Below are positions 4,624 to 35,159 of a stretch of 42,204 bases of DNA, piece after piece. How positions within the stretch are numbered: position 1 is the stretch's first letter; every line of letters begins with the position of its first letter. The stretch spans positions 1 through 42,204 of the forward strand of contig MHTV01000001.1 of NCBI GenBank assembly GCA_001823215.1, given 5' to 3'. The stretch comes from Candidatus Wildermuthbacteria bacterium RIFCSPHIGHO2_02_FULL_45_25. Its GTDB lineage: Bacteria; Patescibacteriota; Minisyncoccia; Minisyncoccales; UBA10102. The translations under genes were made by a program, and so were the position numbers. The notes under the pieces are model-generated. The model saw only the letters and a list, made by a program, of their open reading frames with translations, was not told the origin of the DNA and did not search any database.

Positions 4624-4651
4624 TTACTGCACGCAGCCGCCATGTCGCCGC

Positions 4652-6047
4652 ATCTACAAAAGTAGAAATTTTATATGGGTATTAGACTTTCCAGAGGTGA
4701 ATTATACTGTGGATCTACAAAAGTAGAAATTTTATATGGGTATTAGACCCGAACAAAAACAATAAAACCATGAATATCTACAAAAGTAGAAATTTTATAT
4801 GGGTATTAGACCCTTGTGGTAGGAGGAGATGGAGTATATCTACAAAAGTAGAAATTTTATATGGGTATTAGACTGCGAAGAAGAATAATGTACCTTACTC
4901 ATCTACAAAAGTAGAAATTTTATATGGGTATTAGACGCGATGTCCTGCTTGTCGATCCTATAATCTACAAAAGTAGAAATTTTATATGGGTATTAGACGG
5001 AATTGAATAGCCATAAGGGCAAGCGATCTACAAAAGTAGAAATTTTATATGGGTATTAGACGGATGGAATTCCGAATCAGTGTTTGATCTACAAAAGTAG
5101 AAATTTTATATGGGTATTAGACCTATTTACAGGCGCAACACCCGGGCATCTACAAAAGTAGAAATTTTATATGGGTATTAGACCAATAATTAACTGTTCG
5201 TAGGGTATGATCTACAAAAGTAGAAATTTTATATGGGTATTAGACGGGGATGGTTCAATCAAATATCTTTATCTACAAAAGTAGAAATTTTATATGGGTA
5301 TTAGACATTGGAAGAGTAGAACGAAGTATTGCTATCTACAAAAGTAGAAATTTTATATGGGTATTAGACAAATTATAATCAAGCCGATTGTAGAAATCTA
5401 CAAAAGTAGAAATTTTATATGGGTATTAGACAAAATATACAAGTAATAAACCCAGAGATCTACAAAAGTAGAAATTTTATATGGGTATTAGACAAGTATG
5501 GACGCTCTCATCCTGTCTGATCTACAAAAGTAGAAATTTTATATGGGTATTAGACGGTGGTATTGCTGGATTCGATTCTTATCTACAAAAGTAGAAATTT
5601 TATATGGGTATTAGACTATTCCACGGAATGTTGCCCTTTTTATCTACAAAAGTAGAAATTTTATATGGGTATTAGACATTTCAAAAGGTTAAATCTCTTC
5701 CTATCTACAAAAGTAGAAATTTTATATGGGTATTAGACGACAAAACAGAACGTACTTCTGTTACATCTACAAAAGTAGAAATTTTATATGGGTATTAGAC
5801 AATTGGGGGCATGACGTACCCCTATATCTACAAAAGTAGAAATTTTATATGGGTATTAGACTAAAACAATGAATGTTATCCCTTATGAATCTACAAAAGT
5901 AGAAATTTTATATGGGTATTAGACCCTAGAAGAAGAAATGTTTTCTTTCCATCTACAAAAGTAGAAATTTTATATGGGTATTAGACAAAGAAATTGCAGA
6001 GAAGAACAATGATCTACAAAAGTAGAAATTTTATATGGGTATTAGAC
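4652..6047 (-). CRISPR. Type V-A CRISPR array: 23 identical 36-bp repeats and 22 spacers (25-27 bp)
   Basis: Minus-strand repeat GTCTAATACCCATATAAAATTTCTACTTTTGTAGAT ends in the Cas12a handle AATTTCTACT-N-GTAGAT. Repeats counted by hand from 4652-4687 to 6012-6047. Confidence 0.99.
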
Positions 6048-6261
6048 AGTAGAAATGGCTTTGTTAAGCGGAAAAGATACAAAGATCTCAAAAATGAGTA
6101 ATCCGACTTTTGGCTTAACAAAGCCATTTCTCCCTAGAGTGTTTTTATAAAGGCAAAGGTTTTCCACCGTTATATATTGAGTCTAAATTAATATCCACAC
6201 GCAATTTATACTTTATGCTTCAGTATAAGTTGTCAACGAACATCCATCAACATCTAATCTA
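6048..6261 (-). promoter_or_regulatory. CRISPR leader containing a 19-bp inverted repeat and a TTGACA box
   Basis: AT-rich region between cas2 and the first repeat. IR arms at 6051-6069 and 6113-6131; TTGACA on the minus strand at 6231-6236. Confidence 0.7.
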
Positions 6262-8184: not shown

Positions 8185-8430
8185 TCATTTCGGGTGTTGC
8201 ATAATATCTATACAGTAATACATATCATCTTTAATAACAAAGTAGAACCTCCAATCCCTATTTACCCTCGCCTGCCAAATATTATGCGCCTCGTTATATT
8301 TCTTGGCATGAAGTGAGGGATGCCGCAAATCTTTGAGCAAGCAACGAATCTGTTTCTCGAAATCTTTTTGCACACGAGCTGGCGCAAAATGATACGATTT
8401 TCTAAAACGGTTTGTGTATAACGCCTTCAT
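8185..8430 (-). CDS. RelE/ParE-superfamily toxin
   Basis: 81 aa, basic; YTNRFRKSY...HPSLHAKK...WQARVNRDWRFYF; ATGA-coupled to the upstream antitoxin. Confidence 0.8.
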   Translation of the reverse strand: MKALYTNRFRKSYHFAPARVQKDFEKQIRCLLKDLRHPSLHAKKYNEAHNIWQARVNRDWRFYFVIKDDMYYCIDIMQHPK

Positions 8431-8702
8431 TCAGAGTGAAGCGAGTTAATCATATCTTGCGCATTATCAAACGGTCCAGATACTTTTCCCTCATCAATAT
8501 CTTTTAATCCTTCTGCCAGTCGCTTTTCCATAAATGTGTACGGAGTCAAAACAAGCTTTTCTCTCTCTACCTTTATTTCAAGATAATCGCCCGCACCCAA
8601 ACGAAGCGCATCATAGAGCTTTTTTGGAATAGCTACCTGTCTACTTGATCCTATTTTTACCATACGAGAAACAACTTTGTTTTGAGAAGTTTTTGTTTTC
8701 AT
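8427..8702 (-). CDS. AbrB/MazE/SpoVT-family antitoxin
   Basis: VKIGSSRQVAIPKKLYDALRLGAGDYLEI swapped-hairpin motif; acidic C-terminal GPFDNAQDMINSL. Confidence 0.85.
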   Translation of the reverse strand: MKTKTSQNKVVSRMVKIGSSRQVAIPKKLYDALRLGAGDYLEIKVEREKLVLTPYTFMEKRLAEGLKDIDEGKVSGPFDNAQDMINSLHSE

Positions 8703-9165: not shown

Positions 9166-12100
9166 TTATTCTTTTTGAGTGAATTTATCCCATTCTTCAA
9201 TACTGATGCTCAAATCTCCCCATCCCATTTTTTCCAAATTGCCATCGTTGTCCTTTTTAAACTGCTTAATCTTTTCTAGAATCATGATCCCTTTTCTAGC
9301 GATATTATAAGCTCCGTTAGCATCCCCATTGAATTCCTTTATATCCTTAAATCCTTTGCGTGAGTCAAATTCGCATTCCGGACACTGAATGTAATCGGTA
9401 TTTCTCCCAGAAATTGAATGCCGCGTTTCGGTAAGCAAAAACAACGCATATAAGAAATCTTTATAAAATTCTCTTCCGCGTGCAACAGATAAAATCTGCT
9501 CTCTTATGCCTCCATGCTCATAATCAATCTCATAGGTCTTTAATAATCCTTTTAGATACTCTGTGAGATTAAACTCTTTAACAACGCCCTTTTTTGTTTC
9601 GCTTTCATTTACTTCGCCCTTGTATTCATCAATACCGCGCTTTGCAACTTTTGCTTTTTCCGAGTACCGATCGTACCATTTGTAACGCAATGCGTTTTTT
9701 GTAGTCAGAATAAAAATATCTTTTTTTAGTGTTTTTGCATACAACTCGTTTGATACCTTCTTCTCTTTCTTTTGATCTTTACTAGATAACTTTTCTAAAG
9801 AGTAGCTGATTTGAAACACATCCTCTTTCTTATTATAATTAATAGACTCAAGATTTTCTATGAGTGTCTTTGCTTGTTCTATATTCTCAAATAGACATTT
9901 GATATTTCGTCTATAACCACACTCGGGACATGTTTTTGATGTATACCCAGCTTGAGTATAGAAAATGAGACCCGTTTGTTTCCCCATATCCTTAAAAGCA
10001 ATAACTGGCGCCGCCAATTGGTATGCTCTCAAGATATGACCTGTTTGTTTTGGATCTTCTTCTCCCTTTTTTACTAAGAAACTCAATTTATCTATAAGAG
10101 CGCGCTCCAATTGCTGATACGCACTTTTCTCAATACCACCTCGTATTTGTTTGAAACGCATATTCAAATCTTCAAACACGATAATGGCATTATGTTTAAT
10201 GATAAGATCAGCGAGGTTCCGTATCACCTGTGAAATATAACCTTTTTTGAGGTCTTTTATCGCTTCTACTTCTTCCCAATCTCGCCGTGAAGCTTCCCGC
10301 TCCTGCGCCCTTTTTTCCAATTTAGACGCATACTCAACTGGCTTGCCCCTGCCATCTTTCCCAATGGAATTGAGAGTATCTGTCTCAATGATTTTCCCAT
10401 TTTGATCAATTACAGAGTAATAGGCAAGATGCTTTTCTCCACGATCAACACCAATAATATGTACCCCGGGAGTACTACTTAGCACCTCTCGTATTTCAAC
10501 ATCCATTTCACGCTTTGTCTTACTTTCAGAAACACGATTGAGAGTAATCGGACAATGAAATAGAATAATGTCCTTAGCATAGCGTTTTCGATCTATAACC
10601 GCCCCGTCCTCTTTCTCCTTTGCCTTAACCCACTTCTTTTCGCCTGCGTCCCATACCTTATACCCAAGCCTTTTTTCTTCAGTTTTTGGCCGAAAGAATA
10701 ATTCAGCTTCACCGTTCAACTGAAATAAAAAGTTTTCTTGCTCGTTTTCCTTGCTGAATAATTGCTCAAAGTACAGCGTGTGCAGATTCTTTGTTCTTTT
10801 TCGATTTTTATCCATGGGACCCAAACTCCAATCTTTATTGTATATTTCAAAAAGAAATAATTCCCCATTATCATTTTTTTCTTTTATGTACTGCTCTGAA
10901 ATCGGAACAAAAGAAATATTATATGTAAGCGCATTGATGTCCTGATAGAAAGCGTCCAAAGATTCATATTCTTTTGCTTCTCTCAACCTAGAGTAATCAA
11001 AGATAGTCGTACTCTTATATGCCTTTAGGAAACGAATACAAAACTCTATCCACTGCGCCAGAGCTTGCTTGTATCCATTGTTATCTCGGCTTATCTCCAA
11101 ATACTGCCTTTGGAACTTCTTGACGCCAAGTTTCTTTTCGAAGTCATTCTTAGGGACAAACGATTCTTCAATATTATCCTTGCGATAGAAGACATTATTC
11201 AGTTCATATATATTCTTTGTGATTGCCACAGAAATTTTATAATCTTTCTCATGAAAAAGATTATAATCAGATGAAGACTTTCTAAAATGCTCCTTCACAT
11301 TTTTAGTTTGTGTTGAGCATTTTGGGATCATCTTTGACGCCTCCGGGAAAAATTTGTAGGCCATCTTCTGAAACGATCCGCTCTCTATACCCTCCGACAT
11401 CTCTTTTGAATAGCGATCGGCAAAAAGACTCTTACAATCTTCTTTTATTATCCCAAGATAATACCGGCCATCTTTTCTTAAAATGACCGCAGCGTTTGTT
11501 TTTTCTTTATTCTTGTCCCATCCATCCGCAAGAGTCGGATTTTCAAAACTTAATACCCACTTATTAGTATTGTATGGCTTCTTAGTAAGATAATTACGAA
11601 ATAAATTGTATGGGCGAACAATTTGTTCAAATGCATCGCGATAAAAATTCAAATATCCTATATCTGAAGATTTATAAAATCGATCGTCTAGATCATAGTT
11701 ATCCAACCAACCCCTTCTTTTCTCAACAGCAAAATACTTCGCTATTTGATAAATCAATAGCGTCGCATCTGCAAAATTTTTAATGGCTATCTTCTCTTCC
11801 AAATCAATAACTGGATTCTCGCGAGTAATTAACTCATTGATCTTTGTTACAAATATCTCATATCCAATTTTTGTTTGTTCTCCAGTTTGCGCGCTCGTGG
11901 TTTTACGAAAGAATTGCTGTTCAAGTTCAAACTTAAAAACGCACAAAAATTGCGTAAACACATCCTTAATCTTTTCGAAATCTACTATATCTTCATAATA
12001 TTCCCCTTTCCATATCCTCCCTTCCTGCTTTTCAAGAGCTCGCTTTATATGTGAACACTTTATAAAGTCAGGAAAAGAAAACTTGCCATCTTTATCGCTT

Positions 12101-13338
12101 ATCTTGGAGTCGTTTTTGTGTGTTCGTAATAATTCGTATACGAGTTTATTTTGCTTCTCTGCAACAACCGCAAACAAATCTCGTTCGAATGATTCAAAAC
12201 TTGCGAACCAACGGCTCGCATTATGACTGACTGCTTCCTTGGTTAAATAAATCTTATCAATATCATACCCGGAATAATCAGTTACAATATCTGCGATTAG
12301 ATTCCTAAAAGATTGGATCTTTACTTCTGCATTCTCATAGAATGTTTTTAATTTCCCTACAAGTTCCTTATTAGTCTCAATGCTCTCAATAAATGCCTCC
12401 TTCGCGCTATGAATCTGCTTATCGAGTTGCTTCAAAAATGGTATCTTTTCTCCGGAATTATCCTGACGATATTTATTTATCAGCTCATTTATACCTGGTA
12501 TTTTTTTATCTTTCTCGTCCACTTCGCCGCCGATGATTTTGTTATATGTGTCAATCCCACCCTGAAGAAGACATGCATTGTAGTATGCTAAAGAAAATAT
12601 GCCAGCGCATGAGATATCAAAGCTCTTCTCGACTTCAGAGAACTCAATTTTTTCTGATATTTTTTCGAATATCTGAATATTTTCACAAAATCGGCGGAGA
12701 TTTTGATTGATAACACGATAGGCAATTGCTGTTGAAGTATCGTCTGACTTGTAGAAGTTCTTCCGCGTTTCAAAAAATTTCTTGAAATAACCGGTCCATC
12801 TAGTCCATTCGTCAAAAATGTTATTTCCATCAACAGTTGTATCTTTTTCATTCTTAAATCGTTCTTTAAGAAGCCGGAATACACCAGCTTCAAACAGCAT
12901 ACCGAGACCCTCCTTTTTTATGCCGAGTAACTTGTATTGTTCACTCCTCACCCATATATTAGCAACCTCTTCAAAACGCCTCACAATCTCTTCGCGCAAA
13001 CCAACCTCTATCTTAACGAGTGTATCTTTCTTTTGCTTTGATTTTCTATCTTTTTGCCATGTCTGAAAAGTATCTTGATAGATTGCTAAATTTTTGAACT
13101 TAAAACTTTTTAGAGCATCTTCAATAAACTCACGGTGCAGTTGATCAAACCATGGTTTTACTGCTTCATATTTTTTTCGGCGCGTTTCGTCATTCTTTAT
13201 TACCTGTTCATCGTCCAACATCTTCGGTGTATTCAAAATTGGACGCAACTCAAACCGTAATGTTTTTGAAAGCTGATATTTCCTTGTAAAACCATCAAAG
13301 ACACTCCCCTCTTTCTTCTCTTTTGTATTATCTATCAT
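9166..13338 (-). CDS. cas12a: Type V-A CRISPR effector Cas12a (Cpf1), 1390 aa
   Basis: FTRKYQLSKTLRFEL, GWDKNKE, NLHTLY, RuvC-I IIGVDRGE, RuvC-II IVFEDLN, RuvC-III NGDANGAYNIARKG; adjacent cas4-1-2 and V-A repeats. Confidence 0.97.
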   Translation of the reverse strand: MIDNTKEKKEGSVFDGFTRKYQLSKTLRFELRPILNTPKMLDDEQVIKNDETRRKKYEAVKPWFDQLHREFIEDALKSFKFKNLAIYQDTFQTWQKDRKSKQKKDTLVKIEVGLREEIVRRFEEVANIWVRSEQYKLLGIKKEGLGMLFEAGVFRLLKERFKNEKDTTVDGNNIFDEWTRWTGYFKKFFETRKNFYKSDDTSTAIAYRVINQNLRRFCENIQIFEKISEKIEFSEVEKSFDISCAGIFSLAYYNACLLQGGIDTYNKIIGGEVDEKDKKIPGINELINKYRQDNSGEKIPFLKQLDKQIHSAKEAFIESIETNKELVGKLKTFYENAEVKIQSFRNLIADIVTDYSGYDIDKIYLTKEAVSHNASRWFASFESFERDLFAVVAEKQNKLVYELLRTHKNDSKISDKDGKFSFPDFIKCSHIKRALEKQEGRIWKGEYYEDIVDFEKIKDVFTQFLCVFKFELEQQFFRKTTSAQTGEQTKIGYEIFVTKINELITRENPVIDLEEKIAIKNFADATLLIYQIAKYFAVEKRRGWLDNYDLDDRFYKSSDIGYLNFYRDAFEQIVRPYNLFRNYLTKKPYNTNKWVLSFENPTLADGWDKNKEKTNAAVILRKDGRYYLGIIKEDCKSLFADRYSKEMSEGIESGSFQKMAYKFFPEASKMIPKCSTQTKNVKEHFRKSSSDYNLFHEKDYKISVAITKNIYELNNVFYRKDNIEESFVPKNDFEKKLGVKKFQRQYLEISRDNNGYKQALAQWIEFCIRFLKAYKSTTIFDYSRLREAKEYESLDAFYQDINALTYNISFVPISEQYIKEKNDNGELFLFEIYNKDWSLGPMDKNRKRTKNLHTLYFEQLFSKENEQENFLFQLNGEAELFFRPKTEEKRLGYKVWDAGEKKWVKAKEKEDGAVIDRKRYAKDIILFHCPITLNRVSESKTKREMDVEIREVLSSTPGVHIIGVDRGEKHLAYYSVIDQNGKIIETDTLNSIGKDGRGKPVEYASKLEKRAQEREASRRDWEEVEAIKDLKKGYISQVIRNLADLIIKHNAIIVFEDLNMRFKQIRGGIEKSAYQQLERALIDKLSFLVKKGEEDPKQTGHILRAYQLAAPVIAFKDMGKQTGLIFYTQAGYTSKTCPECGYRRNIKCLFENIEQAKTLIENLESINYNKKEDVFQISYSLEKLSSKDQKKEKKVSNELYAKTLKKDIFILTTKNALRYKWYDRYSEKAKVAKRGIDEYKGEVNESETKKGVVKEFNLTEYLKGLLKTYEIDYEHGGIREQILSVARGREFYKDFLYALFLLTETRHSISGRNTDYIQCPECEFDSRKGFKDIKEFNGDANGAYNIARKGIMILEKIKQFKKDNDGNLEKMGWGDLSISIEEWDKFTQKE

Positions 13339-13383
13339 GACAATGAATTATTCTTATTATCCCCTTCCCCGATTTTGAATATC

Positions 13384-13536
13384 AAAAAAGGACGACGGTG
13401 ATCGCCCAATAGAAGAATGCTTACCAAACGGTTAAGCGCTACTGGCACCGTCGTCCTTTTTTAATCTCAAAGACGAGGTAAGCATATTCTATTTGGGCGA
13501 TAAAATCAATATATCACATCAAACTCACTCATGCAA
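13384..13536 (-). promoter_or_regulatory. cas12a promoter and structured 5' leader (two interleaved inverted repeats)
   Basis: TTGCAT(13531-13536)-17 bp-TATATT(13508-13513). IR pairs are 13384-13400/13446-13462 and 13401-13425/13477-13501. Confidence 0.65.
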
Positions 13537-13637
13537 ATTTATCATTCTTTCTCCAATAAATTCTTAGCCATCTTTGTTCAATAATAACAAAACCCCGCAC
13601 AAGCATTCATGCGGAGTTAATTGTCTTAAAAGTATGT

Positions 13638-14396
13638 TCATTTTATAAGGTTGCCAACGAGTTTAATAAACTCCTCTGCTTCCAAAGACGCGAATCCCAC
13701 CAGCGCGCCTTGGGCGTTTCCTTCGAGAAGAAATTCTTTGATATTGGAGCTATTTACGCTTCCGCCGTAGAGAATTGTCATGTTTTTCGCAATCGTCTCA
13801 TCCCAAAGTCCTTTGAGCGCATCTCGCATAAAGGAGATGGTTTCTTTGCAGTCTTGAGGTGTAGCAGGTTGAGCATGCACTTGAGAACTTATCGCCCATT
13901 CTGGCTCATACGCAAGCACAATTTTTGAGATCGCGGAGCTTGGAATATCCTTGAAGATACCCTTCATCTGCCATTCTAATTCCGCTCGAATCGCTCCCTT
14001 CAGACGCTTTTTCTCCCCAATGCAAACCACAGGAATAAGTTTTGCCGCCAATACTGCGCGGACTTTTTGATTGATCATTTCCGGTGTTTCTCCAAGAAAA
14101 TTTTTGCGCTCTGAATGCCCCAAGATCACATAGGAGCATCCAAGTTTCTTGAGCATCGCAGGAGATATTTCTCCGGTATACGCGCCTTCTTGCTCCCAAA
14201 ACGTATTTTGAGCTCCCAAACTCGCCTTTGCCAAATGTTTCTTGATCTCTATCAAATACACAAATGGCGGACACAGCGCCACCTCCACTCCTTCCACATT
14301 CTTGATCCCCTGCTCCACCTTCGTGGCAAGCTCAACAGCCACGTCTTCGTCAAGCGGATACATCTTCCAGTTCGCAACGATAAGTGTTTTTTTCAT
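13638..14396 (-). CDS. tpiA: Triosephosphate isomerase
   Basis: ANWKM, GAYTGEIS, GHSER, AYEPEWAI, LYGGSV; start trimmed to MKKTLIV. Confidence 0.95.
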   Translation of the reverse strand: MKKTLIVANWKMYPLDEDVAVELATKVEQGIKNVEGVEVALCPPFVYLIEIKKHLAKASLGAQNTFWEQEGAYTGEISPAMLKKLGCSYVILGHSERKNFLGETPEMINQKVRAVLAAKLIPVVCIGEKKRLKGAIRAELEWQMKGIFKDIPSSAISKIVLAYEPEWAISSQVHAQPATPQDCKETISFMRDALKGLWDETIAKNMTILYGGSVNSSNIKEFLLEGNAQGALVGFASLEAEEFIKLVGNLIK

Positions 14397-14415
14397 ATAC
14401 ATTTCAAAAACATCG

Positions 14416-15045
14416 CTATCTCTTATTTTCCCCGCGCAATAGCTTGATATGCCTCCACACCCACCAAACTCCGCCCGCAATAATCAATCCCGCTATCGCC
14501 CAATCAAACGTATGGAAATACTCTCTCAACGAATCCCAATTTTCACCCATTTTAACTCCAATATACGCCAGCGCAAAGCTCCACAACAGCGATCCCGCAA
14601 ATGTGTAGAGCGAAAACTTCCATATATTCATGCGGGCAATTCCAGCCGGCACCGAAATAAATGTTCTCACAATAGGCAAAAGGCGGGAAACAAACGCAAT
14701 GGCGTTGCCATATTTGGCAAACCATTTGTCCGCCAAGTTCAGATCGTGCTTGGTAATTAGGAAAAACTTTCCGTATTTCTCCAAAAACGGCCGGCCGCCA
14801 ATATATCCAATATAATATCCGATGATCGAACCCGCCAAGTTTCCGACAGCTCCCCAAAATACCGCCCAATACAAATTAAATACACCCGTAGATACCAGAT
14901 ACCCCGAGAACGGCATAATCACCTCCGAAGGAATGGGCACATTGGCGCTTTCCAAAGCCATCAGGAGCATAATCCCTCCATATCCCATACTTTCAATCGT
15001 TTGAATTACAAACGTGGCCAAAAGCGTTAAAATATGCTCAATCAT
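14416..15045 (-). CDS. DedA family membrane protein
   Basis: ESANVPIPSEVIMPFSG, RLLPIVRTFISVPAG. Confidence 0.92.
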   Translation of the reverse strand: MIEHILTLLATFVIQTIESMGYGGIMLLMALESANVPIPSEVIMPFSGYLVSTGVFNLYWAVFWGAVGNLAGSIIGYYIGYIGGRPFLEKYGKFFLITKHDLNLADKWFAKYGNAIAFVSRLLPIVRTFISVPAGIARMNIWKFSLYTFAGSLLWSFALAYIGVKMGENWDSLREYFHTFDWAIAGLIIAGGVWWVWRHIKLLRGENKR

Positions 15046-35088: not shown

Positions 35089-35159
35089 CGGGCCATCGTA
35101 TAACGGCAGTACATGCCCTTGGGGTGGGCAAGGCGGCAGTTCAATTCTGCCTGGCCCGA
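35089..35159 (+). tRNA. tRNA-Pro (GGG), CCA not encoded
   Basis: Acceptor stem CGGGCCA/TGGCCCG, anticodon arm TGCCC-TTGGGGT-GGGCA, T arm GGCAG-TTCAATT-CTGCC. Confidence 0.93.

Follow-up and report, generated by a model that had tools for sequence, protein, structure and literature searches.

The non-coding RNAs of class 2 CRISPR systems known as tracrRNA, scoutRNA and tracr-L pair with the CRISPR repeat. In attenuators and riboswitch platforms, among them the T-box, PyrR-type and TRAP-type leaders, a terminator is set against an antiterminator. For type V-A loci, two reports describe elements upstream of cas12a, named CreR and SRU, that are degenerate CRISPR repeats; as set out there, CreR and the repeat have 20 consecutive nt in common, CreR directs Cas12a to its own promoter at a site beside a TTTA PAM, and Moraxella and Francisella are among the organisms in which such elements precede cas12a (10.1101/2023.03.10.532045; 10.1101/2023.03.03.530964). 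The RNA-based control of cas genes that these reports describe proceeds via crRNA-like guides such as CreA/CreR, tracr-L and mini-arrays (10.1101/2023.03.10.532045; 10.1101/2023.03.03.530964).

Here we analyse an element found directly 5' of cas12a in a 42,204-nt stretch of DNA (the window), together with its relatives in other genomes and in metagenomes. Comparison of these sequences points to two alternative folds that share strands, one resembling an intrinsic terminator and the other an antiterminator, and raises the possibility that the element is a switch in the cas12a leader.

Results

A structured element between tpiA and cas12a

The genome that carries the element comprises 868 kb in 46 contigs (97% complete), a size of the CPR type. 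The order on the minus strand is tpiA, element, cas12a, a MazE-like ORF, a ParE-like ORF, cas4, cas1, cas2 and a CRISPR array (Table 1), whose repeat (GTCTAATACCCATATAAAATTTCTACTTTTGTAGAT in transcript sense) carries the canonical V-A handle. The product of cas12a shows the Pfam domains RuvC_1 (4.5e-73), REC1 (8.3e-51), NUC and Cpf1 PI-like. The MazE-like and ParE-like ORFs (8185-8702) overlap by 4 nt and are inserted between cas12a and cas4, unlike in L034 and L091, where cas4 directly follows cas12a. Searched with Rfam 15, the window gave nothing at the gathering threshold save one tRNA (35089-35159, plus strand, 54.7 bits), and relaxing the search to E-values of up to 10 added three chance matches lying outside or across the element.

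Table 1. Positions in the window of the element, its parts and the neighbouring features
Feature	Position	Strand	Description
tpiA	13638..14480	-	5' of element; Pfam TIM 8.1e-74
Terminator-like hairpin of tpiA	13591..13618	-	Between tpiA and the element's putative promoter
Promoter-like site	13508..13537	-	TTTGCA-18-TATATT, TG before -10; 9/12 matches; predicted start ~13501
B	13477..13501	-	ATCGCCCAAATAGAATATGCTTACC; 5' strand of helix P1, first 25 nt of predicted RNA
A* (anti-A)	13469..13480	-	C/U-rich UACCUCGUCUUU; overlaps end of B and extends into L1; can pair with A
A	13446..13462	-	AAAAAAGGACGACGGTG; 5' strand of terminator stem; alternative partner A*
L2	13426..13445	-	CCAGTAG-C-GCTTAACC-GTTT; local alternative partner of B'
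B'	13401..13425	-	Shared strand; partner B in fold P, L2 in fold T
A'	13384..13400	-	CACCGTCGTCC + U6; 3' strand of terminator stem; T6 at 13389..13384
Compact alternative hairpin	13407..13390	-	GGGCGAT-CACC-GTCGTCC; terminator-like, from terminator scan
Second promoter-like match	13385..13356	-	TTGATA-18-GATAAT; 10/12 matches; chance frequency in region
Spacer, U-run to cas12a ATG (13338)	13339..13383	-	45 nt
cas12a	9166..13338	-	1390 aa, directly 3' of element; translation
MazE-like antitoxin ORF	8702..8427	-	PF04014, 1.6e-09
ParE-like toxin ORF	8430..8185	-	Weak Pfam match, 2.2e-04
CRISPR array	4651..6048	-	~23 repeats; after cas4, cas1, cas2

The element occupies 13501..13384 of the minus strand and consists, in this order, of B (25 nt), L1 (14 nt), A (17 nt), L2 (20 nt), B' (25 nt) and A' (17 nt). 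A repeat search recovered A and A' as a perfect 17-bp inverted repeat with 45 nt between its arms, and B and B' as 25-nt arms, 51 nt apart, with 76% ungapped complementarity; with one bulge and one small internal loop, B and B' form 23 pairs at -32.9 kcal/mol, an energy reached by 0/300 shuffles of the 5' segment. The 136-nt stretch as a whole folds at -46.4 kcal/mol, compared with -26.8 +/- 3.4 kcal/mol for 200 dinucleotide shuffles (z = -5.75), not one of which did as well. Segment A is composed of an A-tract and GGACGACGGTG, and A* resembles A'. In the minimum free energy (MFE) structure of the window's element, CCAGTAG of L2 is paired with CTATTGG, and GCTTAACC with GGTAAGC; the latter mid hairpin (GCUUAACC:GGUAAGC in RNA letters) is joined there to CCAGUAG:CUAUUGG and to A:A'.

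The initial annotation of this DNA had already described the anatomy correctly in every detail, from the order B-A-B'-A' and the 17-bp A/A' and bulged B/B' helices (the latter put at ~22 bp) to the U6 run 45 nt before the ATG. It had also predicted transcription to start near 13501, which is the first base of B and the place where the promoter-like site at 13537..13508 puts the start. This predicted start lies ~7 nt past the sigma-70-like site, whose -35 can alternatively be read as TTGCAT with a 17-nt spacer. Sites of this kind occur at chance level in the AT-rich region (2 found versus 2.1 expected); in the other members of the family described below, a -10-like hexamer was seen by eye 4-8 nt before the (G/A)UCGC start.

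An RNA family that accompanies cas12a

At the DNA level, a search of 35 same-family genomes yielded chance matches alone (E of 0.04 or more). We then turned to 55 loci with cas12a homologues and chose the 31 in which the N-terminus was matched and upstream sequence was present. Four of them (L015, L029, L034 and L040) share 29-55 nt with the B'-A' part of the window at 87-95% identity; their Cas12a proteins are just 35-55% identical to that of the window, so that the 3' module of the RNA is better conserved than the protein. A covariance model of this module (R1), run on 56 sources, gave scores of 89-100 bits for the same four loci and for the window, with no other match. Further members came from 150 same-order genomes (G062 and G099), from a pattern search in 400 same-class genomes (G279), from 150 same-phylum genomes (G207, element 90.7 bits) and from metagenomes, where four loci (L091, L125, L179 and L197) were real among the 119 matches listed. 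The 18-19-nt IUPAC pattern used for the metagenome scan was too loose and hit at least 119 loci, so more members exist; the records of L125, L179 and L197 end short of full loci. None of 118 viral pattern loci was a real member, and a second pattern match in the 400 same-class genomes (G402) lay inside an ORF and was discarded as chance. Weak R1 matches of 23-34 bits (G107:C47:27885-27957, G180:C3:386871-386945 and G138:C1:46907-46948) are probably plain terminator hairpins.

These sequences make up one RNA family of at least 13 members, 115-156 nt long; several of the 13 are closely related, and the E-values of the model are rough. The initial annotation had recognised no named family in the element, in keeping with its absence from Rfam 15, and had proposed building a covariance model and listing the downstream genes. 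The conserved RNA element is tied to cas12a: in 11 of the 13 members the next gene, directly downstream on the same strand, bears the Cas12a N-terminal signature (..F(T/V)N.Y.LSKTLRFEL..). The downstream cas12a frame of G279 is intact (1396 aa). The element of L070 stops at the contig edge, with its downstream gene outside. In L125 (1-291, minus strand), it stands 27 nt upstream of an ORF other than cas12a (MQPTITCKNCGTKISIDE...), which has a zinc-ribbon-like N-terminus followed by a coiled coil, gives Pfam sub-threshold hits only and is cut by the contig end. In G207, one of the 11 (locus L319, ~1698-2300; G207:C8:2556-3158), cas12a is an N-terminal remnant of ~200 codons with two TGA and one TAG, and either the RNA outlived cas12a there or the decay is recent.

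Upstream, the neighbours are unrelated (tpiA, DUF212, polysaccharide deacetylase, alaS, ftsH and an AAA_14 protein), which indicates that the RNA travels with cas12a. The complete RNA-bearing loci contain cas12a, cas4, cas1 and cas2 alone, with an array too in L091, and no trans factor was found encoded in the RNA-bearing loci. Since the element marks the upstream border of the cas module beside varying housekeeping genes, and several members sit at contig ends (L070 and L071), it might be no more than a constitutive insulator, a fixed cassette of terminator and promoter bordering a mobile cas12a module, or else the remnant of a mobile-element end, with no regulatory decision involved. We hold this to be highly improbable: a genome-wide search found the element as a single copy in its 868-kb genome, the viral loci were devoid of it, its G-U pairs are strand-specific, with much lower model scores on the opposite strand, and a plain terminator would have no need of the long covarying P1 helix and the anti-A segment described below.

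A Cas12a tree of 39 rows took in the window, L091, the partial L040 and those ORFs of the loci that reached 1200 aa; loci whose longest frame fell below 1200 aa (partial or broken) were excluded, as were L027 and L066 for their over-long frames. The window, L015 and L029 form one clade with a support of 99, L034 is placed at the base of the CPR-type clade, and L040 and L091 lie deeper, L091 on a long branch. The RNA-bearing loci cluster on the tree (3 changes; 0/500 label shuffles as low). Most cas12a loci are without the element, and the RNA is absent from a 15-member CPR subclade, from L039 and, as judged by upstream sequence, from L036. With RNA-bearing loci thus clustered and reaching deep into the CPR-type clade, the distribution fits an old element that was inherited and long kept with cas12a and lost repeatedly, in some lines; such a history in turn argues for an accessory rather than an obligate cofactor. 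As a side observation, the longest table-11 frame over the Cas12a match was short (67-851 aa) in L023, L038, L041, L042, L044, L061 and L069, in several of which tblastn matched nearly the whole of Cas12a; this suggests another genetic code or broken genes.

Searches for repeat, spacer, target and peptide signals

From -500 to +200 in 12/12 members, no crRNA-handle-like or anti-repeat sequence was found, the best candidates having 5-8 mismatches of 19. When compared with the element on both strands, the complete repeats from the window, L029 and L091 gave chance matches of 6-11 nt only (E of 0.3 or more), and the motif TCTAC-N3-6-GTAGA was absent from the four RNA-bearing upstream regions searched. 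With neither repeat nor anti-repeat, the element is not a tracrRNA or scoutRNA, as the initial annotation had argued from the missing anti-repeat, and not a CreR or SRU. A stretch that could mimic the handle, UCUAU/AUAGA inside P1, was rejected, its UC not being conserved (L015, L029, L091 and L197). Separately, a perfect crRNA-handle hairpin (ATTTCTACTTTTGTAGAT) occurs 128-328 nt upstream of cas12a in three of the 27 RNA-negative loci (L020, L031 and L042), where it represents a standalone repeat unit like CreR and SRU or else belongs to an upstream array.

Spacers compared with the leader (23 from the window, 4 from L029 and 47 from L091) gave only exact matches of 7-10 nt, plus one longer alignment (18 nt, 89% identity, E 0.012) at a site well upstream of the element in L091. 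The window has three copies of TAYTGGAA, the complement of the conserved loop CCARUA, versus 3.5 expected, and none of them lies in the cas operon. The 5' seed had 71 matches with up to 2 mismatches in its own genome versus 34 for a reversed control, and nothing stood out among them; unconstrained duplex folding of the RNA with the first 200 nt downstream returned uninformative whole-length duplexes. A leader peptide was also considered and rejected: in the window, L070 and L179 an AUG at about position 17 opens a run of 16-17 codons, the frame is not the same from one member to the next, and L029 and L034 have no such AUG. No described aptamer family in Rfam 15 matched the element, so that it belongs to no riboswitch class known there.

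Covariation in both helices and two probable alternative folds

To gauge the conservation of pairing we used a model-fitted alignment of 12 sequences (A4). The 17 pairs of A:A' are formed in 98% of its cells; three of them are changed on both sides (G-C to A-U, U-A to G-C), and G-U intermediates are frequent. In P1 (B:B'), the first 7 pairs are formed in 99% of cells, and the control, in which partners were slid by 1-3 columns, paired in 34-60% of cells only. Since the 5' strands of L015 and the divergent members are wrongly placed in A4, this alignment was used for the 3' module and these 7 pairs only, and P1 was tabulated per sequence against the aligned B' columns. By this count P1 has 18-27 pairs in 12/12 members and at least 12 columns changed on both sides (e.g. 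AU/GC, UA/CG, GC/AU/UA), the distal columns holding AU, UA, GC and CG types. A table fitted per sequence favours pairing, a bias guarded against by a shuffle control in which 0/300 shuffles reached the observed energy in any of the 11 members tested. Compensatory changes are therefore present in both A:A' and P1, the two helices described in the initial annotation.

Two further pairings emerged from the same sequences. L2:B' and the mid hairpin are formed in 93% and 90% of cells, respectively, across 12 sequences. A* pairs with A at -14.0 kcal/mol in the window (0/300 shuffles as good) and at -10.6 to -17.9 kcal/mol in 10/12 members, the pairing in L091 being seen in the MFE only. Thus, B' has either B or L2 as its partner, and A has either A' or A*, and the choice gives rise to two nested folds. 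In fold T, A:A' and L2:B' form one long hairpin that leads into the U-tract, and B and A* stay unpaired; in fold P, P1 encloses A*:A and leaves A' and the U-tract single-stranded. Computationally, fold P acts on the terminator as an antiterminator would, P1 taking B' and A*:A taking A away from it, and this is conserved. The terminator itself is common to 13/13 members: on the coding strand, ahead of the gene, a G+C-rich stem runs straight into a U-tract, giving a AACCGUCGUCCC-like end with U5-7. B', A, A' and L2 are nearly invariant, with the 3' 11 nt of B' (TATTGGGCGAY) almost unchanged across the family, and the distal part of P1, which has a single partner, varies freely. Double use accounts for the near-invariance of the former and single use for the freedom of the latter to covary; on the evidence of these alignments, a terminator/antiterminator platform would be expected to show just such a pattern.

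Constrained folding of transcripts from the start to the U-run gave fold P as the MFE in 9/12. The energy of T minus P ranged from -2.7 to +15 kcal/mol over 12 members (window +2.7, L015 +15.0, L029 +11.3, L034 -2.7, L040 +12.4, L070 +1.2, L071 +0.7, L091 +9.9, L125 +4.4, L179 +1.5, L197 +13.8 and L316 +5.7 kcal/mol), in an energy model (ViennaRNA; Infernal likewise) that allows nested pairs only and ignores pseudoknots and kinetics. When A' was not yet made or the last 10 nt were hidden, P1 was part of the MFE in 13/13 members.

Could B:B' and A:A' instead form together, as a static H-type pseudoknot giving a compact RNA that serves a separate function, for instance as a ribozyme or as a scaffold for proteins? 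Both helices carry compensatory changes, and they share no nucleotides, so that the sequence alone would allow both. The linker between B' and A' is of zero nt, however, and in the window L1 has 14 nt with which to bridge helices of 23 bp and 17 bp, which, judging from helix dimensions, makes their coaxial coexistence geometrically hard. The additional conserved partners L2 and A* suit a switch and would be superfluous in a static fold, and there is no match to a ribozyme or other Rfam family. We thus regard the static pseudoknot as improbable, and the interleaved helices most likely belong to alternative folds. Of the pseudoknot topology put forward in the initial annotation, both covarying helices stand, and a single joint fold most likely gives way to the alternative partners L2 and A*. 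Its suggestion of a switchable attenuator is the reading that the comparison between members favours most, terminator and antiterminator folds with shared strands being kept across them.

A predicted attenuator or a separate small RNA gene

Taken together, these observations are consistent with an element that would be the 5' leader of the cas12a transcript and a cis-acting, two-state transcription attenuator with predicted read-through, an interpretation to which we assign roughly an even chance. Transcription and conditional termination are inferred; nine sequencing runs contain this stretch, all of them DNA runs, and none is recorded as RNA. Transcription would begin at the first base of B and produce, in this order, B, A*, A, L2, B', A' and the U-run. 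Fold T, in which an A-tract faces the U-tract, would act as an intrinsic terminator, and most transcripts adopting it would end as a ~120-nt RNA whose first ~38 nt (B and A*) are single-stranded. In fold P the U-run would be unpaired and RNA polymerase could continue into cas12a, so that the choice of fold would set the level of Cas12a. Since the nested model gives fold P as the MFE when the decision is made, termination would require either that L2:B' folds rapidly and locally (kinetic control) or that some factor keeps hold of the conserved 5' end. Candidate inputs include a protein such as Cas12a itself, an RNA, a small ligand and the speed of the polymerase; Cas12a would be an attractive candidate for the factor holding the conserved 5' strand. 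All conserved bases, block by block, are explained by double pairing, and hence no ligand pocket stands out; this speaks against the attenuator, as do the lack of an encoded trans factor and the fact that most cas12a loci do without the element.

The gap between U-run and ATG is ~25-63 nt in most members and 100-145 nt in L197, L319 and L040. These long gaps count against a pure role in cis, as do the promoter-like TTGATA-18-GATAAT behind the U-run of the window (at chance frequency there), the intact G207 element beside a decayed cas12a and the foreign gene after the L125 element. The promoter-like match, together with the G that is the first base after the U-run in 12/13 members, would allow cas12a to have its own promoter and the RNA to be a separate gene. 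Beyond the U-run and this G there is often a second U-run followed by AGGG (e.g. UUUUUGAUUUUAGGG); these bases may belong to a longer terminator tail, supply a -35-like TTG or form a small hairpin together with CCCU.

Under that alternative the element would be a standalone sRNA gene of ~120 nt, always terminated and acting in trans on the CRISPR system, with cas12a transcribed from its own promoter; the RNA could bind or titrate Cas12a or base-pair via its 5' end, and fold P could be the mature structure after release. The long gaps, the sequence behind the U-run and the persistence of the RNA in G207 all speak for it, as does the combination of an own promoter or promoter-like site with a strong terminator in 13/13 members. 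Its conserved 5' end, GUCGCC(C)AAUAG, is left unpaired in fold T, like that of many sRNAs with a seed at the 5' end, and the conservation of crRNA handles across divergent Cas12a proteins means that a highly conserved RNA would also fit one bound to the effector. An sRNA gene, however, would hardly be expected to hold a fixed position on the same strand, immediately 5' of the start codon, nor to leave in four members a gap of 25-45 nt that is too short for a separate promoter. Nor is there an obvious use for a conserved antiterminator (A*:A with P1) in a constitutive sRNA, and neither repeat or anti-repeat, nor a spacer match, nor a clear target of loop or seed was found in the window or the genome; many Cas12a loci of the same clade are without the element, which is thus not an obligate cofactor. 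On balance we consider the standalone sRNA less likely, and favour the leader with a predicted two-state attenuator.

Discussion

In the literature, covered mostly at the level of abstracts, and in Rfam 15, we found no earlier description of such a leader. A conserved terminator/antiterminator leader free of repeat sequence would, if true, tune a CRISPR nuclease in a manner different from these guides. More tentatively, and with some reserve, the element might be a repeat-independent RNA switch for a CRISPR effector that senses a signal from the cell or a phage, or Cas12a bound to the conserved 5' strand, flips between the antiterminated fold and the long terminator hairpin and exerts feedback on Cas12a, with the 120-nt product perhaps acting in trans. 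The hosts are CPR bacteria of ultra-small size, in which the regulation of genes has hardly been studied, and the element is short enough for direct testing in vitro; should a defined input prove to act on it, it could also be used as a natural part for controlling how much Cas12a is expressed.

How does the element relate to the systems that resemble it most? Akin to attenuators, it has predicted mutually exclusive folds that share strands, an intrinsic terminator with a U-tract before the gene, and frozen strands of double use. As opposed to the known ones, it is without a known sensor domain, an in-frame conserved leader peptide or an Rfam match, the gene that it would regulate is a CRISPR effector, and P1 uses the very 5' end of the transcript. 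With tracrRNA, scoutRNA and tracr-L it has in common that a non-coding RNA is encoded beside a class 2 effector gene; its complementarity to the repeat, in contrast to theirs, amounts to chance matches of 6-11 nt, and Cas12a loci without the element carry the same canonical repeat. Like CreR and SRU, as the two reports describe them, it is a small RNA element immediately upstream of cas12a, placed to control the level of Cas12a; unlike these, it has no repeat-like sequence, and its anatomy is that of a terminator/antiterminator leader. The switch would then, if true, be a functional analogue of CreR and tracr-L that is mechanistically unrelated to them.
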